From the NCBI GenBank assembly GCA_000934665.2, contig KZ538380.1, forward strand, positions 56,687 through 76,686: a stretch of DNA of 20,000 nucleotides, read 5' to 3'. Position numbers and translations under genes: made by a program. A model generated the notes under the pieces. That model was given only the letters and a program-made list of their open reading frames with translations, did not search any database and was not told the DNA's origin. The DNA is from Catajapyx aquilonaris (lineage: Eukaryota). Positions 1 through 20,000 of this stretch are shown here, piece after piece (position 1 is the first letter of the stretch; each line of letters opens with the position of its first letter).

Positions 1-8
1 TGGTTTAA

Positions 9-177
9 GCTGCGTTTACATGCGAGCGATTTATCAGCGATGTTGCAGCAATTGTACTGTACATTGCTCAGCGATGAGATCAATATTGTTTGGGGCGAAA
101 ATATTTTATACCACCCTGTACCACCTTGGTACCACCATTGTTACATCGCTGATAAATCTCTCGCATGTAAACGCGGC
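9..177. mobile_element. MITE (~170 bp) with ~35-bp TIRs, flanked by TTAA on both sides
   Basis: gctgcgtttacatgcgagcgatttatcagcgatgt (9-43) vs acatcgctgataaatctctcgcatgtaaacgcggc (143-177), 2 mismatches. TTAA at 5-8 and 178-181. Superfamily uncertain. Confidence 0.85.
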
Positions 178-518
178 TTAAAACGATGAAATTCTTAACA
201 AAAATCATTTCAAATACCTTAATATAGGAATATGGACACTCCAAGACATCGCCCTCTACATTGTTTGTGACCCTTAATTGCATGGCAACAATAGCGGTGT
301 CAAAAATTATGCTTGTAAATGCAGGGTGTTCCAAGGTCGTGGGTAGTTTTTAGTTATCACTGATATCACCCAAAGTAGTTATTTTATGTCGCTATATTGT
401 TGTGCCCTGATAGTGCCCCAGGTGGTCGAATAAACAGCAGTTTCAATGAAATAGGGCACATGGTTAGGGTTTAGGGGCACAAGAAGCTACAAAAAAAAAA
501 TAATAGCAGCTTCGAGCA

Positions 519-994
519 AAAGGACATGGCACAAAATGTATGCGGGCCAGTGGCCTTCCGTTCGATTTGCCTGAAAATGGGATATGTTGTATCTCATACT
601 GTCCTGATCAATGTTAGATAGGGACATTTCGAGGTAGGACCTACAGGGAGCATGCTAATATAATATGAGGAGTATAGTATAGTTACTATACTCCCCATAT
701 TACCTTCGAAGGTCATTAGCATGCTCCCTGTAGGTCCTACCTCGAAATGTCCCTATCTAACATTGATCAGGACGGTCTAAGCTGCAACATATCCAATTTT
801 CAGGCAAATGAAACGGAAAACCAGACCATGTCCCATAGTACCTTTGGAGGTCGTCATTAGCACACTCCCTGTAGGTCCTACCTCGAAATGTCCCTATCTA
901 ACATTGATCAGGACAGTCTGGGCTGAAACATATCCCATTTTAAGGCAAATCGAACGGAAGGCCACTGACCCATACATTTTGTGCCATGTCCTTT
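519..994. mobile_element. Foldback element with ~140-bp inverted arms; right arm tandemly duplicated
   Basis: Left arm 519-659 (aaaggacatggcacaaaatg...ggagcatgctaat) is reverse-complementary to 856-994 and to a second partial copy at 715-~818. Central hairpin at 661-702. Confidence 0.85.
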
Positions 995-1000
995 CCTATA

Positions 1001-1327
1001 TAGTAGAACCACGATTATCCGTCACCCATGGGACTGTGGCATCGTCAGACAACCGAAAAGGTTGGATAATAATCCGAGGAGTAAAAAAAAAACTTTAATA
1101 AAACAATACACGTAAAACATGAAATAAACGTACAATATTATGGTTTCTAAGAAATTGCAAAGTATTTTTCTTTAACTCACACACTCTACTGTACTGAATT
1201 TACAATATATTTAACAAAGGCAAAACAAACAAATGCTTAGAACATTACAGTATTTCATGAGAAAACAGATTTATTGCCGGAGAGGGATGGTCAGATAATA
1301 CGAGGTCGGATAATCGGGGTTCTACTG
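1001..1327. mobile_element. pogo/Tigger-type MITE with TA TSD
   Basis: TIR (t/c)agtagaacc(a/c)cgattatccg at 1001-1021 and inverted at 1307-1327. TA at 999-1000 and 1328-1329. Confidence 0.8.
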
Positions 1328-1700
1328 TAACTAAAAACCCCACAACCATATTTTGACATGTAATTGGACTGTATTGTTGGTTTCCAGTTGTGTCAACTCT
1401 CAGGTTAATGACAGTCAGCAAAGGTCAGGTTGGCACTTGGGAGTGTTGGCACCACTGGCAACCAACAATAAAATCTAGTTACCGATATGTCCAAACTTTA
1501 AGGTCACCCTGTATAATTACTCGGATTTAAGCAGGCATTTTAACGATAGGCCTACATATACGGAATGACTGTGTGGCTTTTGTTATCCCCGCTTAGAAAG
1601 TGTTTCGCTTTATAAGTGTACTGGTACTCTACGCTGTTTTCATTACTGAAACTGGACAGCATTTGGTACTACACAAACTGATATATGGCTAATTCCATGC

Positions 1701-3308
1701 GTGACTTACACGACATGACACTCCGTTTATGCCTAACTTTTAATTTTTTAAAGCACAAACTTAACATTTAAGGAAAGGGTATTTAATCAGAAATAGGTAG
1801 TGTGTATCTAAGTGTTAATTAATGTTTTCATTTTAACAGTTGCACATTTCATTTGAGTTATATAAATATATAACGGAATTCGTGACTTACATGACAAGAA
1901 AGCCACTGGTAAGAGAGGCTCAGATACAAATGTAAAATTCTTCACATTTATGACTTAAATACTACTGTTATTGGGGTGAGGATATTTTCAAAAACCCAAA
2001 TATATTATTATGTGTACTTGGTGTTATGTTATTAATTTTACAAGAAATAAATTATTTCTTTTGTGACTTACATGACACTTTTGTCCTCATTGCTTTCTGA
2101 TTAGATACATGAGAAGAATGTTGGATATTTAGGACAGTAGTAATCTCTCTTATTACATGTTATTTTATTAAAACATTTAAATCATAGGCCTACATGAGAA
2201 TGTGCAGGGCTCCATTTTTAAAATTAACATTTGAACATGTATAATGCATACATAATGCATGTACCTGAGCAGACAGCAGTGGAGTCATTGTATTGTCATG
2301 TGAGATGGCCAGGTGTGATACGTGATGGTCATTGCTGGCCACCCTGTCATGGGATAATTATAATGCCAGGAAGGCGGAATGTGTATGTAGGCTACTACTG
2401 TACATTGCATGTAGTCCATATGTGTATAAATGGTCTATAAATTAGTAAACTTGCCCAACAAAGCATGTAGTGAGTTCTGTCCATTACATTTGCAGTCAAT
2501 GACAATCCAGTTATCTGCTTTGTTATCGGTAAAACTAAAAGCTGATTCATTACTATTTGTCGATTCTGCAGGCAAATTACACATTTGGGATGAATTAGCT
2601 GTATGAGTACCGGAAGTTCGTGGTACAATGTCTTCAATAAGTAAAGTTAAAAATAAACAATATCAAACTCAAAAATGGAAGCATTGGAAATAAGACAATG
2701 TTCTAGTTCATAATGTCCAAGTGTACTGAAATAATGAGATTCTCTTAGTCAGGAAAATAAACAACAACTTTTCCAGTAGGATTCCACATTTCATCAAGCA
2801 GAGCTATTCTTCTTTCAATATCCTTTGATTCAATGAATATAATATTAATATTTGGATAAACTCTGTGGGCAACTTCTGCAAATTCTCCAGCAGTGTTTGG
2901 ATCAAACTGTCTGGCATTGATGGCTTTCTCAAACTCTACATTTTACCTTCAAAGCGTCTCTCTCACTAAAAGTCATACATTTTTTAAAAAATTACACCTT
3001 TCTTTTTGCCTTTCCAATGCACTTATCTCGGACAGCTCCTTGATTTAACTACATTTGCATTTTCTTCCATTCCACTACTGTAAGTGCCATTTTACCAGCC
3101 GGGAAACAATAGTGACAGTGGCATTCAAGTGGATTCATGACGTACACGACAAAAATTAAATGCCCATAACAATGTTCAGACAAAAATCATTATTATTATT
3201 TGAAGGGTACTACTGTGTAGTGAGAAGGTAATTAATATCAACTTTTAGATTTTGGTATACTACAGTTAAATTTTTTAAAAAGGTCAAAAAATTGTGACTT
3301 ACACAACA
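1701..3308 (+). repeat. Dispersed 15-bp motif RTGACKTACAYRACA, 5 copies in the same orientation
   Basis: Copies start at 1701, 1882, 2063, 3137 and 3294. Confidence 0.85.
2435..2960 (-). pseudogene. Frameshifted C-terminal remnant of a DDE transposase, Sola-like (HGKGxxDGxGG type)
   Basis: Manual translation with frameshifts gives VKCRV(W)KAINARQFDPNTAGEFAEVAHRVYPNINIIFIESKDIERRIALLDEMWNPTGKVVVYFP(G)LRESHYFSTLGHYELEHCLIS, then DNWIVIDCKCNGQNSLHA(F)VGQV. This resembles the post-catalytic 'IPGTRxxH' segment of such transposases. The catalytic motif itself is not readable. Confidence 0.5.
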
Positions 3309-4211
3309 CAAAGATGGTATATAAACTAGCTAATTTTTATGCTGAATAAGTCATTGCAATGGAAAGATAAATATATAGTACATTCATCCAGTTCTTATGT
3401 GATAGAAATCATACTGCATGAAAAACACTACCTCACGTGTTGAATTTTGAAGATTTTTATGGAGCCTTACAACAAAGAAATTTGCACGCTCACCATATTG
3501 GAAATAAACAGTGTTGTTAACTTGAATGTATATGACAATTTTCTAATATCTGTTCAAAAATTTAAAAAAATACACAATCTCAGCTTTCAGAAAAGATCAT
3601 GGTATCATAGAAATCATTTATTTTAAAATCTGACCCTGATGTATTCGCATGGAATTAGCCATCATTTAAATTAAATTTTGCACAAAGCCGATTAAATTTT
3701 TTTCGCACTCTTTCTATGCAGGAAGAATTCCATTATTAGATAAGAGGCAGCAAGAGCACATTTATACCTGCCTGTGCATAAAATTGGCGAACCTTGCTCA
3801 TTCATGTTGCTATCACACATTTGCGTCATTTTCTCATTTTTCTCGCATTCCATTTCATAACTGAAAGCTGACGCCCGATTTCCCTTACATATGACTTTTA
3901 TCTCTGTACTTTGGTGCTATTGTCTGCTGTTATTAAGTGGCCAGCACAATAATGGCTGCTACAGTAATAAAATCTACCTGCACCGGAATTGGATATGACA
4001 AAAACCTTTCTATAATAGGCGTACCTAGGTAAAGTTTGCCACCATGGCAACAAGAGGGGCGTTTGCTGGACAATTTTACCGTGGGACGTTGCCTCCCTCT
4101 ACACAGCAGTCTACACAGTATACCGATGAAATCCTTCATATTGTAATTATTACACAGAGACTAATAAGTTAATCAGTCGCTCTCGCACTCAACCCTGTGA
4201 AGTTAACATAC

Positions 4212-4606
4212 CTTTTTCAGTATTCTGACCATGGTTGGCGTCATCGTCATGGTCGGTATTGTCAGCCGTCGCCAGACTTTTATCGTCGCTGACGTTGTCC
4301 AGTTTCAGGGACTCACTGCTGGGCACGGGATTGCCCACGGGATCCATTTGGGAGTCTGATGGCACCAACCCAACGCCCTGTTGACAACTCGCCATCACAA
4401 CCCCACTACAGCCCTGCACTGACTGCCAGTGCCAGAAGCCAGACTGCCTGCTCCTGATGTGCGGTCCTCCCACCTACCACCAGTGTGCGCAGCAGTAGCT
4501 ACCCGGCGCAGCATCATGGCGGAGGGAGGCTGACTCTTTCTTCGCCAGCATGCATGGCAAGGCATCTAGGTCATGATCTTAGCATGATGTTTTGCTGCAT
4601 TGTTTT
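4212..4606 (-). pseudogene. GC-rich exon-like segment, possibly a decayed exon
   Basis: Acceptor-like tattttccctag at 4607, donor AAG|gtatgt at 4211. The 3' half is open and acidic (…SESLKLDNVSDDKSLATADNTDHDDDANHGQNTEK). The 5' half has stops in all frames. Confidence 0.3.
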
Positions 4607-5304
4607 CTAGGGAAAATATGCATAAATACCATAATTCCATAAATACCGATATCTGCACTAGGCGCCACCAACTAGATAAGGCAAACCTGCCACCCGGATT
4701 TGGAAGAATATCATATTATGCAATAACTACAAAAATTAAGCCATGGTATAACTGCTACCGTGGTATAGACTTCTAAAATAATATACGCGTACGTCATGTT
4801 AGATAGTCAGGAACATTTCGTCGGCAACAAGGAGAAAGGGCGAATAAACCATTTTTGATGTTATGAGAGGTAAAGAGGTTGAAAAGACCCAGTCAAAATA
4901 AATGGAGACTGATTTTTTATGTGACAAAGAGAATCAGTTCATGACTCATGGTGAATGGCATCGTGTCCAGTATGGATGGAAAAGTATTAGAACACCGATT
5001 CTTGCTGTTCAAATATTCCGCGATCTCAGGCGATGGTGACTCCGGAAGTAGACCTAGGTTCACATATTTGACCTCAGCACTGCCCGGAAGTCGGTGGTGA
5101 GACCCAATATTCAGGGTTGGGGTTTTGCTTCCGTTTGAATAAAACAACCACACAGGTGTACATGAGTGGGTGAAGGACTTGGGTGGGGAAGGAGCCCTGA
5201 GTGCACCCCTCATGCGCTTTTTCTTTGGCCTCCCTCCCGTGCACCCTCCCTGGGGGGCTCATTACCGGCATGTCATCCCGAGTACTGGCCAGGCCTTGGT
5301 GCCC

Positions 5305-5570
5305 AACATGTGCAAATGATCAATGCAAAATCGTGTGGACACTATCACTGGATGTATCATGTATACCACACATTCTGGCAAGGTCGTCGACGGTTATGCG
5401 GTGATCTTCCGCGACAATCACTGCATAGGACATAGGTGGTGTCAATGATCTCCTCTGTCAAAAGTCTAAACTGATGGAAGTCTGCAAACCTGTCTCTTTG
5501 AAAGCTGACTACTTACCCTTGCTGAATGCGTTGTACCATCGGAATGCTGCGGTGGGACACATCTTCGCCA
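5305..5570 (-). pseudogene. Mariner transposase N-terminal (HTH) fragment, frameshifted
   Basis: Reads GEDV../AFRWYNAFSKG…TEEIIDT…IVAEDHRITVDDLARMCGI…SVHTILH/DHLHM, matching the mariner EDRRITV…SVHTILHDHLGM segment. Confidence 0.75.
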
Positions 5571-5760
5571 GGTGCAGGTGGGGCGACTGCCCTAGGGCCC
5601 CCCAAATTTTCCGACGAGTTTTAGAAAAAATTGAGGAAACCCACAAATCCATAATAGTAGGTATATACGTCTATAACCTATATTCTATAAGACGTAAGAA
5701 AGCGGGTTCGATCCAATCAATTCGGGCTCTTACTATCTCTCGCAGTGGCAGTGTCAGTAA

Positions 5761-6133
5761 GGGGTCGTCCATATACCACGTGACCGATTTTCGGGCACTT
5801 TTTGACCCCCCCCCCCCCCTCCACCNNNNNNNNNNNNNNNNNNNNNNNNNNNNNNNNNNNNNNNNNNNNNNNNNNNNNNNNNNNNNNNNNNNNNNNNNNN
5901 NNNNNNNNNNNNNNNNNNNNNNNNNNNNNNNNNNNNNNNNNNNNNNNNNNNNNNNNNNNNNNNNNNNNNNNNNNNNNNNNNNNNNNNNNNNNNNNNNNNN
6001 NNNNNNNNNNNNNNNNNNNNNNNNNNNNNNNNNNNNNNNNNNNNNNNNNNNNNNNNNNNNNNNNNNNNNNNNNNNNNNNNNNNNNNNNNCCCCCCCTCCC
6101 CCCAAAACGGTCACGTGGTATATGGACGACCCC
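5761..6133. mobile_element. PIF/Harbinger (Tourist-like) MITE spanning the gap
   Basis: Perfect 26-bp TIR ggggtcgtccatataccacgtgaccg. TAA TSD at 5758-60 and 6134-36. Poly-C inside. Confidence 0.9.
5826..6089. other. Assembly gap (264 N) between poly-C tracts
   Basis: Run of N. The ORFs spanning it are artefacts. Confidence 0.99.
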
Positions 6134-6713
6134 TAATCAGTACCGTATGGCACAAAAACACTGAAATGAGAAATCATTACAGTAATACAGTAGTAATAGG
6201 TAAGGGCTCATAGTCTACTGCCAATACTTATATCACATGTGGCCACTGGGGCCCCCCGACGAAAATACGTGAGAGACATCATAGCCGTATCCATGGATTG
6301 GACCAACATGCAACATGATTGTGGGTTGTGGAGTGTTCAAGGCCTTCCGGCGCCCTCCTGAGAGCCGAATCGTGGGAAATGTTTACACTTAACGCTTACA
6401 CCTGGTTAGTCTGTTAGTAACAATGCAGATATTGCACTAGTGGAGAGGAAGTCGTCATGACTCATAGTCTCGACCTGAAAGACAAAGCCAACAGGGGTGG
6501 GCCAGTCGCCAGTCAATCAGACCCACTCACTGATTGAAATGGATCTTATTGTAGTCGCTCTTAATACTTGTGTGAGTTGTGTCTTGTGTCGGGAATTTCA
6601 GTTTGGATTGTTTGTGTGATGGTAGTTCGGACTCGGAGTGTTAACTGTGCAGGTGAACTGTGCAGGTGAACTCGCCATCCTGAGAATAGAAAATGCTCGG
6701 GCATTGTCTCTAA

Positions 6714-6840
6714 CCTCTAGAGACCCAATGTATAGTATGCTATACATCCGGTCTGCANGCATTTTTTAAACCTCAGAAAAAATACTCAGACAAAAATGCA
6801 GACCGGATGTATAGCATACTATACATTGGGTCTCTAGAGG
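6714..6840. mobile_element. piggyBac-like MITE with perfect 44-bp TIRs and CTAA TSD
   Basis: cctctagagacccaatgtatagtatgctatacatccggtctgca (6714-6757) inverted at 6797-6840. CTAA at 6710-13 and 6841-44. CCT terminus. Confidence 0.85.
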
Positions 6841-7901
6841 CTAAGGCAATTGACATCATTTTTGCATAATTTTCTATAGACCTATATAATGACTGTGACA
6901 GCTTTTCGGTGAGTAGATGCGTGTATTTATATCTCATTACTCAATATTATCCTTCTACTGTATATTGATAAGTGATATTGGTATGTTGCGGAAAGTGTAG
7001 CAATGTAAGTTACTATTAATATGTGCATGGCCTACACATTTGTCCTTTCACCGGCAAAACCTGCGGTGGGTGATTTCACCTTAAAATATGCATTTTCGCC
7101 ATTTTCTGGAAAATTGTCCATTCGCCCTTTCTCCTTATTGCCAACGATTTTAGGTGGACATCTTCAAATGCACTAATCAGCTGAGTGTCAGTTTATGATT
7201 AGGCCTATAGGGCTGGTTCAGGATACCTGGCCCAGGGCACACACGTGGTAAACATCCGCTTCAAGAAGCCTGGCACCTATTGTTATCGCACCTTTTTTCA
7301 CAGTAGCAAGGCAAGATCGCAAGGAGTGATGCATATACCTGCCAGAATATTTAATATCTTGTGTTTTACTTTTAAGTCCATCATTATTTTTGCTAACGAG
7401 AGCGTGGGAACTAAACTGACGCCTTCACATAAGGTTACCTCTGTTGCCCAAGAGTTAAACCTGTATGTTTTCTAAATTACGAACACTCTGTATAGTCTAT
7501 AGTGTATGCGGCGAAGCAAAAAGAAATTATGAAACATCCATATCTATAGACAGTATAGCCTAAGTATTGCAATAGAGGTCCTGGAGAAGTTATGCACTGA
7601 TTTACGCCAGCAACATGGTGCCAAAGAGATACTAAAACAGGTGAATGCTGTGGTCCCGATTTACTGGAGATAACTATGCAGATCCTCCCCACCTGCAGTG
7701 CATAACAACAAAAACTGTAGTAAGTGTGTATGTCATCCATAGTGTCCTGACCTGTATGAGGCAACATTGCATATTATGATGATTTAAATCGCCTTATTGC
7801 CATAAAATTTTTAAACATATGGGTGCTTCAATTGCTCAGACATTTTTGCTGAATCACCTCATAGCGTCGAATATCTCGAGTTAGAAGCAAGAGGTTACTA
7901 A

Positions 7902-8163
7902 TAGTAATGATACCCCGTAATAGGCCTCCTTGGTCCTCTTAGGGGATCATCTTTTAATTGACCGTCTTTAATCATTGCCTGCGCTGTGATGGGTTTTGAT
8001 TGCAGGAGGAAACGGGAGAACCCCGAGAAAACCCACGCGAACACGGAGAAAACCCATCGAAGTTCTATCCACATAAGTATATCCTCCGTCCGACCCGGGG
8101 ATCGAACTCGGGACCTCAGAGGTAGAAGGCTTCGGCGCTAACCACTACGCCACCGTGTCGCCC
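7902..8163 (-). mobile_element. Full-length tRNA-derived SINE with a V/Meta-type central domain
   Basis: A box TGGCGTAGTGG (8152-8142), B box GAGTTCGATCCCC (8109-8097), central TTCTCCGTGTTCGCGTGGGTTTTCTCGGGGTTCTCCCGTTTCCTCC. 16-bp TSD agcaag(a/c)ggttactaa at 7886-7901 and 8164-8179. Confidence 0.9.
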
Positions 8164-9211
8164 AGCAAGCGGTTACTAAACTGCAATTAATATTTCTCTT
8201 CTACTTTTGTAAATGATAATTTTGTCTATTAAGCTGAATGTATAAGTTAGCCGTGTAGATTGACAATAATAATGGAATGATAAACTGATAAGACTGAAGC
8301 AAACTTCAGGGCCCGCCCCACATTTTCACACGTCATGCTTTTGGTCATTTTGTAGTTGAATGCCGTTTTATCGAGAGGCATACCCGACACCTATATAGTT
8401 GATCGCATTGGCAATACTAGAGCACATCATCGGTTTTCAACCTTTGTGTTGTCGTGGCATCCTCTTTTCTCTCCAAAACTCAGCCGGCCCCCTTAGGAAA
8501 AGAAAAAAAAACACGGGTAAATTGATAGATTTATCACTTTTAAAACAACCCTGGAGAGAGGTCTCTTCCACGCTCTACTGGATTTATAAATGAGCCATGA
8601 GCCGACGCGACGTTGCCGCTGGAGGTCAGCAGCAAGCAGCAGCAAGGACAACAGAACCGGCGGGTATGCTGCATTTTCACCGCTGGCCCTACTTCGCTCC
8701 AAGAGCAAACCAGATAATCCTTGGTGTCGCATGTCACGGCCAAGCGAGTCATGTTTCTTGGGTTACTTGAAGGTTGCAGAAAGTTACCAGGAAGGAGACA
8801 CTACTTTATGGTCCGGCCATATCAGGGGGTTTCATTTTCTGTCTAGTCAACAGCTGGCACATTACTTCTGAGTCAAAAATAGCAAGGAGACAATGAGAGA
8901 TTAAATCATTCAAGGACAGTACTAAACTCTAATCTCTGCAATGAAATAAGCACATAATAGCCTACTGTATGTAATAAATTAGGCAATTGAAGCTTCTGTT
9001 ATCAGTGAATAATATCTACAACTTCCGTAACATATAGGCTACCGTGTAAGCAATAAAATGACACACATTTTTAACTGCTAAGATTGAATCTGAAAATGAA
9101 ATGAGAAAGAGCATATCAAGGACAAGTGTTTATTTGAACTCGGTGTAATTATTATTATTGTCAACGACTTAATCAATTCCCATTTACAATCGCATGTGAT
9201 CAATATACACA

Positions 9212-9460
9212 CGAGGGTCGTCCATAAATTTTTAGCCTAATCATGAAAGGAACGACTTTGGAATATAACTTTTATTTATTATAGTGTACGTATATCTGTA
9301 CATAGTCCCCTGACAAGTCAACACATTTAGGCCAGAGGTGTTCAATTGCCCTTGCGAGGTATATTCGAGGTATATGCTACCTGGATAGAAGGTTTTGTCG
9401 AACCCCTCCAAAACTTCATCCACACCATTCACATGACATCATCGCCCATGTCATAGTACT
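9212..9460 (-). mobile_element. Mariner 3' end: transposase C-terminus plus TIR
   Basis: DDVM/NGVDEVLEGFDKTFY…/AIEHLWPKCVDLSGDYVQI matches the mariner RWxKCxxxxGDYVE terminus. TIR cgagggtcgtccataaa at 9212. Confidence 0.8.
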
Positions 9461-9823
9461 TGAAAGTGAGGTAATTGAAACAAGTTGATATTAGCGCCCG
9501 CGAGGTTTTGCAGATACCGGTGCGAACTTAATTAGTACGGTACCGAACACGAGTTATTCGCCTATACACTATAAATTAAAGTAATGAAAGCAAATTAATT
9601 CCGCATTAATGCGTAAACCAGTAATTCTCTGCCATTCAAAGGCACAATAACATACTATATGGACACATGTCATTTTTGCCATGCAACAAAGGGGTGAAAA
9701 CTTTGTTAGAGGACAATATCTCATATACATTTCAACAAATGCCATCCTTTTTGAATGGACAGGTAGATGTACTGTACAGTATAGCACGGAAAATAATGTC
9801 ACGTCTTACAACTATTGGTCTCC

Positions 9824-10236
9824 TCATAAAGTTCGTACCTTTGGGTTGAAGGAAAAGAGAGAAATGGTTCAAATTGCACACTTGCATTAGTACTTCCCTA
9901 CATAAAATGAACCCTGCAAAGCGACACATTTTTCCGAGTGACCCACGACCTGTAGGACACCATCATTGTAGAAGTCGACACTAATCTTGTGCTTTAAAAA
10001 AAGTTTTCAACCTCTGTTGTCCGTGGTGGCGGGAGGTGGGGGGTGGGGTTGTGTTTCTCCCATGACGATGGTTTTTACAACGATGGCGTCCTACAGGTCG
10101 TGCATCGCTGCTGGGAAACGTGTGACTCTGCAGGTTTCATTTAAAGAGAAGGACTAATACATGTGTGCAATTTGAACCGTTTCTCTCCTTTTCCTTCAAC
10201 CCAAAACAAAGGTGCGAACTTTATGAACGCCCCTTG
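9824..10236. mobile_element. Mariner-terminus MITE with ~150-bp diverged inverted arms; left tip lost
   Basis: 9824-~9972 is inverted to ~10073-10225. Right end …tttatgaacgccccttg followed by TA (10237-38). Confidence 0.8.
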
Positions 10237-11359
10237 TAGTCATTAGCTCTTGCTTGTAGTTACAGGGACCTTCAAGTTCCCATCAAGATGCCCTCACGCA
10301 ACAAGACCATGCCAGGGGTCACACCATTTACTTCGAGACATCCATTTACATCGATTTCCTGCCATCTCGCGCCTCTCATTTTTTTTACACGTCCTGTCGT
10401 CGTAAATTAGACTCATCCGTCATCTACACTAACCGAGGCGCGATGGCCACCTCACTTGAGTTCGTATCATATAGTCATTCCAGAAAAAAAAACTGCACGG
10501 GATTTCGTGGGATTTGGAAGTAGACTTGGCAGGCACATGAAACAAAATTTCCCACCTAGCATATCTACTTGTATCTGTACATTTCTTCAAGGAAACATAA
10601 GGGACGAAGTGTTGGGGGAGGGAGCAGATATTTTGGAAACCCCCACGCGACCGCACAGGCTTTTTCTAGACCGGCTCTATCCGCATTCATCTTTTTAACA
10701 TCCAATCAGCATACAATGATTATCACTGAAAGATCATCTCACATAGAACCCCTGTATACCAATAAGTCATTTTTTTTACGAAAATGTCAGTTAGAACCGT
10801 GTCTTTCTGAGCCCGCGATGTATGTGCGTCGACTCCGCTAACCGAGGCGTGATTGGCTTCCTCAGATGATGACTTTTGGTTATTGTTCTCAAATAGAGCC
10901 CGTTTTAAGAATATCGAGTAAGCTATTAGATGATTGTATAACACTAATAACAGTATAAATTAAGTATATGAAGTGTATTTCAGTCTTGCATACCCCGCTG
11001 GAAGGTGATTCGGCATTTATGTGTCATCATCTCCATTCCCTCGATGTCCCAAAATTGGATACGAAGAATGGTGGCGATCAAAAAATTACCCTCCATGTGA
11101 CAGAAACTTCGTCGCATTCACGTTACGGACGTGATATGTTCTAGGGAGGGATGACTGATTATATGGGTCCGTATAACTCCGAAAGTAATTATTGTTTATT
11201 CGCATCAGTAATTATGCATGTGCTCAGAGTGTAACTATTCTGCATTGTTATTTCTTAGTACACGTGTCACATGTGCAAATTGTCACGACAGTTTCTTTTA
11301 TGTGCTTCCTCAGGGAGCTTGTGCGTTGTGCCCCATGCAAAATCAGTCACTTGTGTATA

Positions 11360-11755
11360 CCAGTACCGCTCATAAAGAATGGTACGACTCTAGAGGATGA
11401 AATGTTTATTCTGTTCCCAACCCCTGGGTCTCCAGCATGTTTAAGTGTCACAAGGAAGTCCGGGAAAGGGGAATCAAAAGAACCTAAAAAATATTATTAA
11501 AAAAACAAGGCAAAGTAGGAAAATTTTAGGGAGGAAATTCGGATCAAATCTACGTAAGCATTGTACAGTACCTGGTTCAACATTTTGGTCATTAAAATTT
11601 GTATTAAAATTTCGTGATGGGTCATACGAGTCATCAGAGGTCCAGAAAAGATTGTCCGTAGGGTCGCGTCGAAATAAGGTTGGGAAAACTGCTGGACGTG
11701 GTGGAAAAACATTTCGTCCATATAGAGTCGTACCATTCTTTATTAGCGGGACTGG
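11360..11755. mobile_element. Tc1/mariner-class MITE, ~50-bp TIRs, TA TSD
   Basis: ccagtaccgctcataaagaatggtacgactcta… vs …tagagtcgtaccattctttattagcgggactgg. TA at 11358-59 and 11756-57. Confidence 0.85.
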
Positions 11756-12388
11756 TACGTTGTCTCCACGTACCTACACACATGTACGAAACAAGAGTAT
11801 CTGTGTGCTGAAGTTAACTGCCCTTTCAACGATATTTTTTTTTCATCACTGATCGTTGAATTTCTCGGCTGTAATCATAGTATTAATGCCTATTTTCTTC
11901 AGGCACCTTTATTCATGTGTTGTAGGCCTACAGCCCCATTTGGTATCCTATCTTGGATGATGACCTCCACAATGCAGAATAATTATATTGCTCTCCCTAG
12001 AAATTTTCCATCATTAAAAATCACTTTTGCTTGGAACTTCACTTATTAAAAAGACAATTATTCTATGTGATGCACCTAGAAACTGATATATTTAGCTGGA
12101 GCTTATTGACTTTTTGTACAGTATTATTATTAAGTAGTATAATTCTCAGATGTGTTATAACACAACTGCCCTCGTTTATTGGGTAAATTTTTTCATATAA
12201 ATACTGTAGAATGAACAAGTGGGAATTGTTGATCACTGAAATGCTCCTCTCCTTGCACCTGCACTTGCGGTTGATCTTAAATGCACTTGAAATATTACAC
12301 CGGCACTGTAAGGGGCAAAAAAAATAATCTCGGAACAAAGTGGAAAAAATAAACATGCCGCCTTCTAAGAGCTATTTAAGAGATCATT

Positions 12389-12394
12389 TTTATT
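12389..12394 (-). terminator. Candidate polyadenylation signal AATAAA of the HLH-like gene
   Basis: tttatt on the + strand, about 50 nt after the stop codon. Confidence 0.5.
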
Positions 12395-12445
12395 GCAACC
12401 CCGGCAACAGATGCACATGGTAATGGCATTCATGCAATCGTCACA

Positions 12446-12574
12446 TTAGGAATCAGATTTCTCTGGATTCGACGACTGCTCCTGACGCTGAAGGCGTTCC
12501 CTCTTACGATTGTCTAAGAACGACAGGCTGCGATTAATCACGTCACGATAACGGTGATATTTTCGTAGCAATAA
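12446..12574 (-). CDS. Exon 3 (terminal) of the putative HLH-like gene: LLLRKYHRYRDVINRSLSFLDNRKRERLQRQEQSSNPEKSDS*
   Basis: Acceptor ctttgttgcag at 12575, phase 0 matching donor CAG|gtatgg at 12641 (67-bp intron). 42 open codons, TAA, then AATAAA. Confidence 0.6.
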   Translation of the reverse strand, partial: LLLRKYHRYRDVINRSLSFLDNRKRERLQRQEQSSNPEKSDS

Positions 12575-12641
12575 CTGCAACAAAGCAGACATGTCAGAAA
12601 ACAAGACCTCCCGGTACTCTCACGTCAAAATAGGGCCATAC

Positions 12642-12895
12642 CTGACAAAACCCAGGCTCGGGATCATCATCCTCTTCGCTGTCCGGTGCGGCATGCACGT
12701 CTGTTATGTGGGCCACTGTAAACGTCAGTTTCTCCAACGTTGAGAGAGAATCAAACGGTCGAATTTCGTGTGGCAGAGCACGTTGCTGTAGATCGGCATA
12801 TGCACGGCGCAAACCTGCAGCATAGGGGCCTTCACCACTCGATGTCCCCTCATCCTCACTCTGTTCAGTTGCAGGAGCCGTTGTTGATGATTGCC
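12642..12895 (-). CDS. Exon 2 of the putative gene; contains a divergent helix-loop-helix without a basic region
   Basis: Acceptor ttttgcttgttgaacag at 12896. 254 nt (2 nt + 84 codons), open: GQSSTTAPATEQSEDEGTSSGEGPYAAGLRRAYADLQQRALPHEIRPFDSLSTLEKLTFTVAHITDVHAAPDSEEDDDPEPGFCQ. Confidence 0.65.
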
Positions 12896-13063
12896 CTGTT
12901 CAACAAGCAAAATTTCTTTCAATGGCAAACAGTTGTTTTTTAGCATCCAGAAGTGCTAACTGATTGTTGAAAATTTTACATAACTTATCGCCGGATGTAA
13001 TCAAGGGCCTTCCATATTAGCCCATGAACAATGAGAATTTTCGCTTTTCGCTGTTATTACTGA

Positions 13064-13734
13064 CAAGGAACATATCTCGGGTGATAATAACAAATATTGA
13101 TGAAACTGAATATGCTAATAAGGACAATATATGATAACCAAAATTGAAGTCATCTCATGCTGAAACCCATATTTGCAAAAGTTATGACGTGTTAAAGTGA
13201 CAAAAATGGTAGGCCTACTACATTTCCATACACAATGGGATTACGTTATTAGCGACCATATATAATGACATTGAAGTGTGTAATCAGTTTTATTGTACCA
13301 AATACACTTTAAAAGTAAAGTAGTAGTCCTAATCGATGAGGTTAACACTCATGATATATGTCATGAGATGAGCTTCTTTTGTTCTGCATCACATTTCAAT
13401 ACTGGTATTAGTTTCTGTATCAACCATTCATTGAAAAGTGAACTGCATAATATGTTTAAATAAATTGTATGACAGTTAAATAATGTGTATTTGGTACAAT
13501 AAAACTGATTCCACACTTAAATGTCATTATATGGGGTCGCTAGCGTAATCTCATTGCGTATTGAAATGTATTGTATCATATCATTTTTGTCACTTTACCA
13601 CGTCATAATTTTTGCAAATATGGGCTTCAGCACGAAATGGCTTCATTTTTGGTTATCATACGTAACTTATTGTCCTTTATTAGCATATTCAGTTTCATCA
13701 AGATCCGTTATTATTACCCGAGATATGTTCCTTG
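13064..13734. mobile_element. Large foldback MITE, ~245-bp inverted arms, 177-bp spacer, in intron 1
   Basis: caaggaacatatctcggg…ttattgtaccaaatacac (13064-13307) inverted at 13485-13734. Flanks tga/cga. Confidence 0.9.
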
Positions 13735-14184
13735 CGAGAATTTTTTCGCCACAGAGTAGCAGGCGAGTGACTCATTCCACTGACTGATTCAGTGACCATC
13801 AACTCCTTTGCAAAGTAATTACCGTTGTGTGATACCAATTCCATGCAATGTTTTCCATGTCAGATGCGAGACAAGTTAAATATTCTTGAAAAACACAGAC
13901 AATCCGGATCTTTTACTGTCACGTTACTGCTCAGAAACCAATAATGCTCAAAGGAAGCCAGTTACGCCACTGAGAAGAATAATGATTACTCTTTCCAATG
14001 CACCATTAATTCAATTTTACAGAAACCGTAGCCAGTCCAGCACTTTCAAAGTGAATTTTCTTCTCAATATTCTGAAAACTACAATTAGCTCTTGCTGGAG
14101 ACTGGAGACTGTAAAAATTATATTATTCGTCTGGGTGTTCTGCACTGTTAGGCTTATCTGTGACTAAAAGTACATTGAAAAGTA

Positions 14185-14284
14185 CAAAGGGCGTTCATTA
14201 AGTTTTAAGCCCAACCACATGAAAGAAAAAAGTGTATTTTATTGTTTCATGGTTGGGTTTAAAACGACTTAATGAACGCCCTCG
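14185..14284. mobile_element. 100-bp mariner-derived (MADE-like) MITE, TA TSD, in intron 1
   Basis: caaagggcgttcattaagttttaagcccaacc… / …ggttgggtttaaaacgacttaatgaacgccctcg. TA at 14183-84 and 14285-86. Confidence 0.85.
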
Positions 14285-14316
14285 TACACTCGCTCTAAAT
14301 CGAGAAGGGGCCCCAC

Positions 14317-14389
14317 CTGCTTGACCTGCTGCACCCTGTTCGTCTGCATCCTCCGGTTCCGAGGCGGGCTCATTTCCAGCAGCTTCCAT
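14317..14389 (-). CDS. Exon 1 of the putative HLH-like gene: MEAAGNEPASEPEDADEQGAAGQA(G)
   Basis: ATG at 14389. 73 nt ending GCAG|gtgggg, phase 1, which matches the exon 2 acceptor phase. GC-rich with acidic composition similar to exon 2. Confidence 0.5.
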
Positions 14390-15526
14390 CTGGTTATTTT
14401 ATTTGTCCATGTCCATTGTTCCAGAAAAAACGCTTCAAACTATGGCAGAATAACGACGCCTAGAATCAACAAGAAAAATGTGTCACAAGTCGATGTCAAA
14501 GTTGTTGTGTCACTGGGTGAATCGGGTGAGATTGCGGGGGTGTCTTGTTATGGACCACGGAGGCTTGAGTTTGTTTTATGAGGTAGGAAGACAGCCTCGT
14601 GCGAGGCTCGCCGAAAAAATAGGTTCTAGGCAACGTGTGTATAATTGGACCACGATAACGACCCTGAGGTGACCTCGAGTAACGGCATAGAGAGGTCATA
14701 TCTTACCGAGCGTGTGATGGGAACTAACCACTGGCAAGCGTCCTGTACCACTGCACTGCTTAAGGTTGCCAACAGCCAATGTGCGAAACATGACCCTATG
14801 CCTGACGGTCTTCGGTATTTACGAGGCAAGCGAGGGTCTGAGATAAGACTCTATCGCTTTTTTGTTTTCCTGACGAGAGTGCAGGTTCGGATTTCTGCAC
14901 TCATTAGGTACCATGAAGTGCTGCATTGATGTGGGCCCAGAAGTGGCTCACATTTGACAGTATAATATATGGTACTGCTTTGAGAATAGGCCTACATACA
15001 ACTCACAAGTGTCTGGCAGGGTGATTTTACTGTTATTTCCACATTTGATAATTCCAGCTTCCAGAAATTTCACATAAAGTTCCTTTCTCATCCTGGCACA
15101 GCACCAATACTATACCCTGTATACAATGGCCAAGCTAGTTACTGGAAGCACATTAATTTTCCGACTTCCCAGCTAGGATTGGGCTAATAATTGGGTAATA
15201 TTAATGGAGGTATACCAGTATGCTACTATTGCTGAAGTGCAGTTAACTATAACTTTTTCGGGGGGGGGGGGGTCATAACTTAGTAATCCGTTTCTGCGTA
15301 TGTGCAGCTAATATTAAATGAGAACTCCGTCTCATTTATTCTCATGTGTTTACCTTCTTACTCCTCTGCATCACGTGATGGACTGATTGGAGTAATACCA
15401 AGTATAAGGAAACTTAAAGCATTATTCTCAAAAAAGCGCGCACAATTTGGATTATATTTCACCCTTTTTTGCGCGGTTGATTTGGCTCCGACATGGCAAT
15501 GAAATTTGACAAATGAAATCGACCTA

Positions 15527-15784
15527 TAGTCAAAGGACATCCTAGAATGCACTTCTGGAACCTCCCACTTTTCACATTTCCATGTAAATGACATTGTTTA
15601 CTCAAATTGTTGTGTGAGAGGGCCAATCGGAAGCCTCGAGGTAACAATATATGCTGGACCATATTGTTACCTCGAGGCTTCCGATTGGCCCTTTCACACA
15701 ACAATGTGAGTAAACAATGTCGTTTACATGGAAACGTGAAAAGTGGGAGGTTCCAGAAGTGCATTCTAGGATGTCCTTTGACTA
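15527..15784. mobile_element. Near-perfect palindromic MITE (124-bp arms, 10-nt loop), TA-flanked
   Basis: tagtcaaaggacat…gtaacaatat [atgctggacc] atattgttac…atgtcctttgacta. 4 mismatches between the arms. Confidence 0.9.
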
Positions 15785-16609
15785 TATAACTTATGTTAGG
15801 GTCAAAGTTCCAAGCCAGTGCCGAGGGTTCGGTTTACTACTTTACACTGACAGAGTCACTTATTCATGCCACTTGCAGAGTTTAGGTTTTAAAATATATC
15901 CAAAACATACCGTGATTTTTTTGAATTATTTTCTTACGACTTTTGTAGAGGAAGGTTTCAACTTCCCAACCATAAAATCATTCAGTTAATTTAGCTAAGA
16001 GGTAAGCGCAGAAAAATTCTTGTTCCTGGTGGCCTTCTTTTGGACCTTACTTAAACGGGTTATGTCAATCCAACGATATGGTAACACACTAACTTCCAAC
16101 AGACTTAACCTGCAAATATTCTGCATAGCGCACAACAGGAACAGACTTGAGCTAAATCAAATCTTGTAAAACACAGGATAGGCTCCATCATACATATCAA
16201 GCACATGGGGAAGAAAAGAACAATTCGATATTTCCAAAGGGTATAAACAGCGTAGTAAATCAAGGACCCTGGAATCCGAGCTGATAAGGAGGCCAGGCAT
16301 TCCAAAGCGTGGGATTAGCAACCGGCAGAAAATTATTCCGGGGGGGGTGGGGGGGGCGGAAACCGCTGTCATCACACTGGCCCTTATCAGTAATCCAGCC
16401 CGTTTGGTTTGAGGTCAGACAAACAGCCATTGATAGGGTCCACCTCAGCTGCTTCCCATGCTTCCTCTGACCTCAGGTGACCTGGAGCATTTTTAGAGTC
16501 CCTGGCATCCTCGTGTACGTAACTTCAACTCTTCAAGTAGCTGTGAAACATGGATCGAAAAAACACGAGTCGTGTCCACAGTTTCGTAGTAGCCTAGCTA
16601 TGTATGATA

Positions 16610-17041
16610 CAGGGTGCGGAAAAACAGCGTAAATCTTTGAGGGATGGTAGAGGGGATCTAGGCAATCAATTTATGTACAAGTAGACTAATTATGTGTCGT
16701 GGGTCTGCGCCGCCTAGTTACCGATATAATGGACTTCAAACACATATAAAATATCCTGATGTCCAGGTGTGCGTCACTCTATGCGACCTTTTCCATTTAC
16801 ATTTTAGGTGTTTCCATGCAATATTGAATTTGTAATATACGGTACCCGTACGATCCCATTCGGCGTATCAGGCAATGGCCCTACCTAGGCGATGGAAGTG
16901 TCGTAGGCTGTATCTAATACCACATAGATGATGTTAATTATCTCGACATCTAGGATGCGCAAGCATAAAATGATCGCATAAATCCCAGGCTCTACCATCC
17001 CCCAAAGTTTCTGCAAGTTATGTTTCCGCACGCGCACCCTG
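16610..17041. mobile_element. Old Tc1/mariner-class MITE with CAGGGTG termini
   Basis: TA-cagggtgcggaaa…ctttgagggatggtagag vs ctctaccatcccccaaag…tttccgcac…caccctg-TG. Confidence 0.7.
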
Positions 17042-17089
17042 TGTTTGTTCTGCCATATAAATGGGTCATTGAATTACCTTAGGTATATC

Positions 17090-17264
17090 CAGGGTGTCTG
17101 CTGGATCGGGCTCACCAAGCTGCACAAAAATAATAAATTATTTCAAGCGATATTGGCGGTAATTAAAAACGACCCGCATTCTTGGAACACCCTGTACAGG
17201 TGTAGGCCCCCTTTTGCGACGGGTTTAGGTTCCAACAAAACGGTCGTAAAACGAGGACTACTTG
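17090..17264. mobile_element. Two small adjacent TA-targeting MITE remnants (CAGGGTGT type 17090-17194; pogo-like 17197-17264)
   Basis: cagggtgt…acaccctg, TA, then caggtgtaggccccc-ttttgcgac…gtcgtaaaacgaggactacttg, TA. Confidence 0.5.
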
Positions 17265-18339
17265 TATATTTACAGACCAGGGCAGGCCCTAGTTTAATAC
17301 GTATCCAATAATGCATTTTGTTGACTGTCTTCTTAAAGTATGCTACAACTTGGCTAATTAAACATTACTAGGCCATTTGTGCATAATTATTACCAGTTGT
17401 TTCGTATAAAATCACCTTTGCAGATACCTGTAGGAAGGCATAATATTATTGAACTGTTAATCGCACAAAAATATCAAAAAGAGCCGATTTTGATATTATT
17501 GACATTTAAATTAAGCCTAATGGTACCTTTCCCCAAAAATTGTGTCCCGACATGACGCGTAACTGTCACTTAGTGATTAATATTAGTATACTCACAAAAA
17601 GCCTACACCAAGTGTGTTCTACTCCCCGCGAGGGATAATTATGTCACTTCACTTTTTCAATCACACTCCTCGCCCACGCACCCAAATGAAGGCTACGAAA
17701 AATTTAGTTACGAACAGTAAATATACTGTATGTAGCAAAACCCTTCGCTCACTCACTCTCGACGCACAGCTGTCACTTACCAGAGGTCCTTTTCCGAACT
17801 AAACCAGCATACACCATACCTAGAAAATCAAGACACGGAACCCCCTTGCCATGATTCATGAGTTATCGCTACCCACGAACTTCCAGACCTTGTTTTTAAA
17901 TGATTCCAGTATGCATCAAGCACATGGCAACCCCCCTAGCCGCGGACACCTGGACCCCCTGAGACTGCCTTCAATTATCTCTTACCGGGACCAGTGCAAG
18001 ACCCCTGTTTTCTGTAAGTCAATTGAAAACAGTTACCCTACTACCGGCTCCCACCTGCAGCACTTCACTCTGTTATTAAAATCAATGTTATCAAATATGG
18101 GCACTTTATGTTTTTCTGGTCATTTATAATAATTATCCATGGAGGTATCATGGAGGTGACCCTGTTACCGGCTAGATGTTTTTGTGCGCAGTCGCAATTG
18201 TCACGGCTGCCAACTGTAACAGGCGATGTGGAGGCATACTCCAAAAAATTTATTTTGGATAGAAAATAATTTTATTGGGTTGCAATTACCTTATCATAGC
18301 ATGCACCTAACTTTTCACAAGTATTACTTCCAGAGTGGA

Positions 18340-19360
18340 GCCTGCAGCCCTTCATCTGTATCGGATTTAGTCGAGAGTGAGTTGGTCACACTGCGTAACG
18401 ATGGAAGTGGCAACAACAGTGCAGGCAAAACTCTCTTCACCTCTATCAAAGATGGTGGCCACAGCCTATTCCTTTTTTTTCCCGGCGTACGGCTGCGATT
18501 GACAAACGGAATTACACATGTGGAATTTGCGAATTGATGCAGCAGGAGATGTGCACATTCAATCTGAACAACGATCTGAACAATTACTAACGTCCCTATG
18601 CCGATGGCGGGATACTGTATCGACACCGTATAAGCGGTGTTGCCACTTCTTTCCTTGCCCTTTTTTGCCATGTGACGTCATTGGATTGGTTTTTCGCGGT
18701 TCTTCGAAAATAACAATTTAAGCAATACGGAAAGGTGTACTTTTCTTTTCCGAATTACGATCTATACATTATTCCCCACATTTTACATATTTTATTTTAA
18801 AATTCTCATTTACTAAGGATTTTTATGTGGACTCTTGGAAATTCTGCCATAAGCCCCCATGTTAAATCGCGAACTTCTGAGCCCTCCAGTTGGCTAATTT
18901 GGACGGTGACGTGTATTTTTTTTTGCACCATTGATAAGAGAACACAAAACTGTCTAACATATGTTTTTTTCCATAAAATTCTCATTATGTGACTCTAGCT
19001 TCATATCCACCTTAAGTGGATCCACGTAGAATTTCTGAACGATATACAAACGTGGTCCACGCTGCACATAGCAGCGGCAGCAAAAGGTCTTCTCATCCGT
19101 CACAAGAGTCCACTTACAAGGTTACACCAAACGGAAGTAACCGCAAGACACTTGCACTATGTGGGTTTAACATTCACATACCACACAACAGTCGGAAATA
19201 AGTACACGTATAATGACCAAAAAATACCAGGTCAAGCAGTACGACTCCCAAGAGCAAGGGAGCACACGACCCTCACAGCGTTGTCCAACATCTTTGAATT
19301 AATGCCCCCAAGAAAGCTTGCAATCAGTTCGTGAGTCCAAAGGCAAAACTATCAAAAGGG
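18340..19360 (-). pseudogene. Highly decayed non-LTR retrotransposon (CR1/L2-group-like) RT remnant
   Basis: Colinear degenerate motifs: LTN(W)IASFL (~19330), GS..P..FLVII (~19230), WYVNV (YVDD-like, ~19175), LL..GVTL (~19125), RLYIVQK (~19050), ESFACTV…TQCDQLTLD..IQ/RRAA (~18430-18345). Many frameshifts. Confidence 0.4.
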
Positions 19361-20000
19361 GCGCACGTATAACACCAGACAAGCCATTATTATAGTTACC
19401 TTCACAAAATTATGGACCAAGTGTGAGAGATCAAACTTGTAGTTAATAAGCAGGGTAAAACGTGTTAATATTAAACTTCCACAGCAATTTGATTACTGTC
19501 CTACATTGTGACATAACTTACTATTTTTGAGTCCAATAATAATGTGCCATATCGAGGTAGGTAGTCGGCTGAAAATTGGGCTAGAAAGGAAATAAGCTTT
19601 TTCGCGTATTAATTCCGTTGCTGTTAATAATGCAAATCTAAGAATATTCTACTCCAAAGTAAAATAATTGAAAATCAGAGGACCACAATAGTACAAGTAA
19701 TATGGTATATCGCATAATTATGTCTTGCTGCCAGTGCACACTTTTTTGGGGAGCAGCTTGCAAGTAATTTTTGTGGGTAATTAAATTTACAAGTGACTGA
19801 TTCTAATTATGGTACAGAATATACAGGGTGATCAAACTTTTTTGTCGTTTTAGTTATTGACAAATTAGGCCTAAGCTGCTTATATTGTAGCCCGTTCCCT
19901 GGCAACCCCGTCCGGCGGGCCAATTCAAACATCGGCCCATGGAGAGCGCTTCCATTGTTGCCACTGTTTACAAATCGAGTGAGTGACGCAGACGACCCAG

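Follow-up and report, generated by a model that had tools for sequence, protein, structure and literature searches.

Among helix-loop-helix (HLH) proteins, those of group D carry the HLH without a basic domain and act as antagonists of group A factors, according to their published definition (PMC1828162). Since membership of group D requires an HLH domain, a protein in which no such domain can be demonstrated is not assignable to this group. Id and Extramacrochaetae are the described proteins to which the product of the gene studied here had been likened. With them it shares a small size, a predicted amphipathic helix not preceded by a basic region and, read by eye, an HLH-compatible pattern. 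It differs from them in showing neither PF00010 nor similarity to HLH chains in the exon pieces searched, in a second helix that the weak exon-2 model does not predict, and in having no Id or Emc relative detected with exon 2. An acidic N-terminal half and a basic C-terminal helix, as found here, are to our knowledge not features of Id.

The gene can also be set beside the orphan small protein genes of eukaryotes. Common to both are a short and largely disordered product, a low-complexity acidic tract and the lack of a detectable homologue, as well as a location in repeat-rich DNA with no recognisable neighbours. With its three confirmed introns, its long ORF and a confidently predicted terminal helix, the present gene nevertheless resembles an established gene more closely than many de novo candidates do.

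The DNA analysed is a stretch of 20,000 nucleotides, hereafter the window, and all coordinates are counted from its first letter. A preliminary description had read from it a gene for a lineage-specific, Id-like HLH inhibitor lacking the basic region and ending in a basic amphipathic helix. Of this description, the gene itself, the missing basic region, the C-terminal helix and an apparent restriction to one lineage all stood, while the core claim of an HLH or Id-like protein was not supported. Working from raw sequence alone thus gave coding junctions that were right to the base and a functional label that was not. We consider the product of the locus to be a small acidic protein, expressed and taxonomically restricted, whose basic C-terminal helix is its putative binding surface, and give this reading a probability of roughly 0.6.

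A spliced gene of at least four exons

The exon junctions were checked over the span 12000-14800 against the contigs of one public run (X1, from a single study and of unrecorded library type); such contigs carry no information on strand, expression level or transcript ends. Two of the five matching contigs align to the exons with no mismatches. Contig record 1 bridges 12642|12574, and contig record 2 bridges both 12895|14317 and 14459|14707. Within exon 1, contig record 2 has no other letters and a single 1-nt insertion, located in a run of T. All three contig joints display GT..AG on the minus strand, and the contigs skip the unique sequence of intron 1, which they leave without coverage. The removal of three canonical introns in one and the same orientation points to spliced mRNA as the source of these sequences. 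Should X1 be DNA that holds a processed copy of the gene, this copy would itself derive from spliced mRNA. The locus is a transcribed and spliced eukaryotic gene of the minus strand, with at least four exons.

On this strand, the gene starts with a 5' non-coding exon at 14707..14742 (the part covered by contig record 2 only, the 5' end may extend further), followed by the donor GTAAGA at 14706. Intron 0 (14460..14706; 247 nt, GT..AG, read as CT..AC on the plus strand at the contig joint) lies within the 5' UTR. Exon 1 (14317..14459), placed by contig record 2 and by translation, combines 5' UTR with the first 73 nt of the CDS and carries the ATG at 14389-14387. Reading of the sequence reveals an upstream ORF of five codons (MDMDK, then a stop) at 14399..14416. 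Intron 1 (12896..14316; 1421 nt, GT..AG, phase 1, 35% GC) is defined by a joint in contig record 2, exon 2 (12642..12895; 254 nt, 54% GC) by contigs and translation, and intron 2 (12575..12641; 67 nt, GT..AG, phase 0) by the joint in contig record 1. Exon 2 encodes, in succession, an acidic tract rich in Ser/Thr/Gly, a central helix, a stretch proposed as loop and helix 2, and an acidic patch. The coding part of exon 3 (12446..12574) provides 42 residues, which comprise the basic C-terminal helix, and the TAA. In the 3' UTR (12389..12445), covered by contig record 1 as far as 12399, an AATAAA is found at 12394-12389 of the minus strand, 52 nt past the stop codon.

The CDS joins three minus-strand segments, 14389-14317 (73 nt), 12895-12642 (254 nt) and 12574-12446 (129 nt), into a total of 456 nt, corresponding to 151 codons and TAA, and is interrupted by two GT..AG introns, the first in phase 1 and the second in phase 0. 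Coordinates, frames, intron phases, GT-AG sites, the 151-aa ORF and the AATAAA are all as the preliminary description gave them, and the junctions that it placed at 14317/12895 and 12642/12574 proved exact to the base, X1 contigs bridging both. Its figure of three exons holds for the coding exons, whereas the extra 5' non-coding exon in the contig brings the total to at least four. The gain for annotation is a small gene of at least four exons, whose 5' leader carries both an intron and an upstream ORF.

Coding potential and predicted protein

The 151-codon frame is the longest ATG-ORF in the 609-nt spliced transcript seen, the runner-up counting 75 codons. An ATG-ORF of 151 codons was reached in none of 5000 shuffles of this transcript (mean 47, maximum 149), and shuffling the CDS itself 20000 times left an open frame in 9 cases. 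In-frame stops stand upstream of the ATG at 14389, so that the 5' exon (14742-14707) is non-coding and the frame cannot extend upstream. Judged on these sequence properties, the length of the ORF is far beyond chance and the locus almost certainly a protein-coding gene.

The same observations bear on the alternative that the transcript is real and effectively non-coding or barely translated, its ORF being young, of the de novo type and without selection, with the RNA or the locus as the part that matters. We regard this alternative as unlikely. A frame that remains open for 151 codons across two confirmed junctions, and at a length that no transcript shuffle attained, argues against it. So does the composition of the exons, which resembles that of coding sequence (47-58% GC compared with 35% in intron 1, and 39% G at first codon positions), together with the confident helix predicted for the C-terminal 42 residues. 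The alternative draws its strength from the upstream ORF, which shares the reading frame of the main ATG and stops 9 nt short of it. The start context of this upstream ORF (A at -3, G at +4) is stronger than that of the main ATG (C at -3, G at +4), which could argue for weak translation of the 151-codon frame. The low-complexity and largely unstructured character of the predicted protein would also fit a barely translated ORF, as would the lack of a homologue in the searches with exon 2. The surroundings point the same way, as the 20-kb window is full of foldbacks and devoid of recognisable genes: none of 57 other ORFs of at least 70 aa reaches the curated Pfam cut-off (four weak matches, E 0.029-0.051), and Rfam returns no family over the window. 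With tblastn, the 151-aa product finds only the gene itself in the window, hence no paralogue within 20 kb.

Returning to the reading of an expressed small acidic protein, the 151-residue product has a mass of 16.7 kDa and a pI of 4.6, with a marked segregation of its charges. Ala/Gly/Ser/Thr abound in the acidic segment of residues 1-52, and residues 53-92, the span of the proposed HLH, are near neutral. An acidic patch occupies residues 93-109. The remainder, residues 110-151, comes from exon 3 and is strongly basic (pI 10.5 for this piece).

Structures were predicted with AlphaFold2 from single sequences (no alignment) and for the exon pieces separately. The exon-3 piece (42 aa) is modelled as one helix over its residues 2-35, with a mean pLDDT of 86.2 that rises to 92-95 over the first 30 residues. 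The helical hydrophobic moment amounts to 0.45-0.63 across residues 107-122 of the protein, and hydrophobic residues recur along the helix at a spacing of 3-4 residues to form a seam. The helix, the pI and the moment agree with the basic amphipathic C-terminal helix proposed earlier. For the exon-2 piece (84 aa), the model is weak (mean pLDDT 61.7, pTM 0.23) and contains helices at residues 23-38 and 50-54. According to these models, the only confident structural element would be the 34-residue basic helix at the C-terminus.

Composition and this one single-sequence fold suggest a specific mechanism that we put forward as tentative, namely that of a disordered protein binding through its C-terminal helix. 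The protein would be disordered over most of its length and act as a small binding protein, whose basic amphipathic helix may pair with a helix of a partner or bind nucleic acid, possibly with the assistance of the short central helix. Regulation or masking would fall to the N-terminal half, which is acidic and rich in Ser/Thr, together with the acidic patch, as a charged and probably phosphorylatable region. The five-codon upstream ORF would probably dampen translation. For biology, the gene represents another expressed orphan protein, which will be of interest only if partner binding, either HLH-like or via the C-terminal helix, is demonstrated.

Homology searches for this protein were made with exon 2 as the sole query (84 or 101 aa), exon 3 being included in the Pfam and NCBIfam scans only; relatives scoring under about 36 bits, or families that span the exon 2/3 junction, escape such searches. 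Of the proteins 55-177 aa in length, none matches exon 2 at E<=1. An exhaustive phmmer search of exon 2 against 1,835,955,588 representatives returned a single match at E<=0.001 (E 3.7e-4). This match is a repetitive bacterial protein of 730 aa that aligns in five stretches, and we judged it spurious. In the ESM Atlas, the best score for exon 2 is 0.81, to unnamed bacterial clusters and within the range of shuffled sequences, and recognition amounts to 1835 compared with the 2300 typical for known families. The idea of a lineage-specific protein is consistent with these results, inasmuch as exon 2 detects no relatives in collections that may cover the clade incompletely.

Helix-loop-helix and other look-alikes of the central stretch

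The HLH had been proposed from the hydrophobic pattern of the residues encoded at 12812-12696. The tests of this proposal were run on the exon 2 piece, which contains the entire proposed HLH; a domain across the exon 2/3 junction lies outside their scope. An hmmscan of the three exon pieces, taken separately, against Pfam-A gave no family at E<=10, a threshold under which HMMER filters remove most matches above about 0.1, and the check for PF00010 in exon 2 was therefore negative. NCBIfam likewise yielded no family for the exon pieces. The PDB contains solved HLH chains. None of them is among the five PDB chains that phmmer matches to exon 2 at E<=10, which are three leucine-rich repeat (LRR) chains of Roco proteins and two of internalin-A. 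A Foldseek search of the PDB gave no match at E<=10, a result of little weight given the low confidence of the exon-2 model with which it was performed.

The two proposed helices fare differently in the predictions. Helix 1, which the preliminary description had likened to that of TCF23/24, coincides with the helix that AlphaFold2 places on exon-2 residues 23-38, where the pLDDT of the block is 70-78. In place of helix 2, the low-confidence model, too weak to argue against a longer helix, has a helix of five residues only (50-54), and the helical moment of this region is 0.10-0.38. Its second half is rich in Thr/Val/Ile, with a strand propensity of 1.23 compared with 1.04 for helix. A complex prediction with two copies of exon-2 residues 20-72 scored 0.00 and 0.00, in an uncontrolled run on a chain whose fold is itself uncertain. 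Ahead of the central helix, acidic, Ser/Thr and Gly residues prevail, with a net charge of -4 and -1 in the two preceding blocks of 10 residues. The remark that acidic and Gly residues replace the basic region is thus accurate, and would be meaningful only if the HLH were real.

It appears very unlikely, in view of these results, that the central 39 residues form an HLH without basic region that sequesters E-type bHLH partners, as an independently arisen dominant-negative protein comparable to Id and Emc. Such a protein, if a true HLH, would act by titrating its partners as Id does. The hydrophobic residues at i and i+3/4 on both sides of a Pro-containing linker (12812-12696), the acidic and Gly residues ahead of them and the helix predicted by AlphaFold2 on the proposed helix 1 all fit this scheme, and an HLH of 40 residues could function by itself, as one LRR or an isolated phosphoesterase motif could not. 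The pattern can indeed be read by eye; what it amounts to is a short amphipathic pattern. Opposed to the scheme are the lack of PF00010, of HLH chains among the PDB matches and of Foldseek matches (with a weak model), and a helix 2 reduced to five residues in that same model, with a second half that is beta-branched, of low moment and more prone to strand than to helix. Neither Id or Emc nor any other HLH relative of exon 2 was encountered in the 1.84 billion representatives, and an LRR repeat or the motif I of a metallophosphoesterase fits the same stretch equally well. As far as sequence comparison and models reach at present, the protein cannot be classed as HLH or Id-like. Highly improbable too is an HLH-type dimerisation module that has diverged too far for profiles to recognise, which would make the product a lineage-restricted, dominant-negative bHLH partner with the C-terminal helix as a second binding surface.

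The likeness to LRRs concerns residues 39-67 of exon 2, which phmmer aligns to individual repeats in PDB chains of Roco proteins and internalin with a whole-sequence E of 2.8e-5. Each of the stretches scores only 0.3-5.1 bits, and the E-value is an artefact of one query stretch matched again and again to 6-7 repeats, on which ground we rejected an LRR protein. In comparison with LRRs of the SDS22 and internalin type, where residues 39-67 align to single repeats, just one repeat-like stretch is present here. No second stretch of exon 2 matches and no Pfam LRR family was found, leaving no sign of a tandem array in this exon. A solenoid cannot form from one LRR.

A further look-alike emerged from a metagenome scan for exact 8-residue words in 241 million records, in which 582 stretches shared a word and one passed, its E being relative to these candidates. 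The match is to a 306-aa bacterial ORF, called metallophosphoesterase-like from reading and not from a profile, with 14 of 26 residues identical and an identical run of ten among them. It falls on motif I (the first strand and D-x-H), directly after the N-terminal leader of the bacterial ORF. Compared with the calcineurin-like metallophosphoesterases (PF00149), the ten-residue identity at D-x-H is shared and the further metal-binding motifs of the family are absent here: none was found in the protein or the window, where tblastn of the bacterial enzyme gave nothing else below E 1.9. We rejected this candidate as a chance match selected by its word, Pfam giving no Metallophos. That one stretch of 25-30 residues has three mutually exclusive look-alikes argues for a generic hydrophobic alternation and not for the signature of a family.

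The least credible explanation is that exon 2 was captured from a larger gene or is what decay has left of one, whether a metallophosphoesterase gene, with exon 2 as its first coding exon, or a gene for an LRR protein, with exon 2 as one repeat, and that it is now spliced into a short chimeric transcript. The ten-residue identity within the 14/26 match to motif I and the repeated weak LRR matches (residues 39-67, E 2.8e-5) on which it would rest are offset by the exact-word selection of the former, by the reuse of one low-scoring stretch in the latter, by the lack of both Metallophos and LRR in Pfam and by the tblastn result in the window.

Inverted repeats within intron 1

Eukaryote-like in character, the window has a GC content of about 40%, an N gap at 5826-6089 and many foldback repeats. 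Two inverted-repeat elements, called MITEs in the preliminary description, fall inside intron 1, as that description had it and as their coordinates bear out. The smaller one is a short palindromic element of about 95 nt (14188..14282), in which inverted repeats of 16, 16 and 14 nt are nested with a complementarity of 86-100%. The larger one is a MITE-like foldback (13064..13734) with arms of about 250 nt (13064-13311 and 13481-13734) around a loop of about 170 nt, made of three collinear pairs of inverted repeats that are 90-93% complementary. Three X1 contigs match this foldback at 90-95% and then diverge from the sequence of the window, which indicates that the foldback has other copies.

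Inverted repeats within and around the gene

Intron 1 (12896-14316) of the minus-strand spliced gene houses a large foldback element at 13064-13734, whose arms are matched at 90-95% by three contigs of X1, a single public sequencing run. Beyond the arms these contigs diverge from the window, and the element is therefore multi-copy, being present elsewhere among the X1 contigs; one of the three continues into a tRNA-like stretch.

Further inverted repeats are scattered over the window. A near-perfect palindrome occupies 15525-15786, with arms of 126 nt that are 97% complementary and a spacer of only 10 nt. The long ORFs found on both of its strands mirror each other and are not genes. Units of about 110 nt, some direct and others inverted (D1, I2, I3), cluster at 544-971 and form one more composite foldback repeat. 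The assembly gap at 5826-6089 (264 N) is bordered on both sides by poly-G/C runs and by sequence reading as mutual reverse complements, which suggests that a further inverted repeat is centred on the gap.

Gene content and a bacterial look-alike

None of the 57 other ORFs of at least 70 aa in the window (1-20000) reached a Pfam cut-off, and no Rfam family was found over the same interval. By these scans, recognisable coding or RNA genes are absent from 1-20000, the studied gene aside.

Exon 2 (12642-12895, minus strand) shares a ten-residue identity with a 306-aa ORF of a bacterial metagenome record (L001, 2905-3825), which carries an N-terminal leader and metallophosphoesterase-like motifs. 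This likeness was judged a chance match, picked out by the word scan.

The leader of the gene

A minus-strand upstream ORF of five codons with a strong start context lies at 14399-14416, in the same frame as the main ATG, and its stop falls 9 nt upstream of that ATG. It probably reduces translation of the main ORF. Within the 5' UTR, a run of six T in the window (at 14424/14425) is one base longer in an X1 contig; this is either a difference in homopolymer length or a mistake of the assembly.
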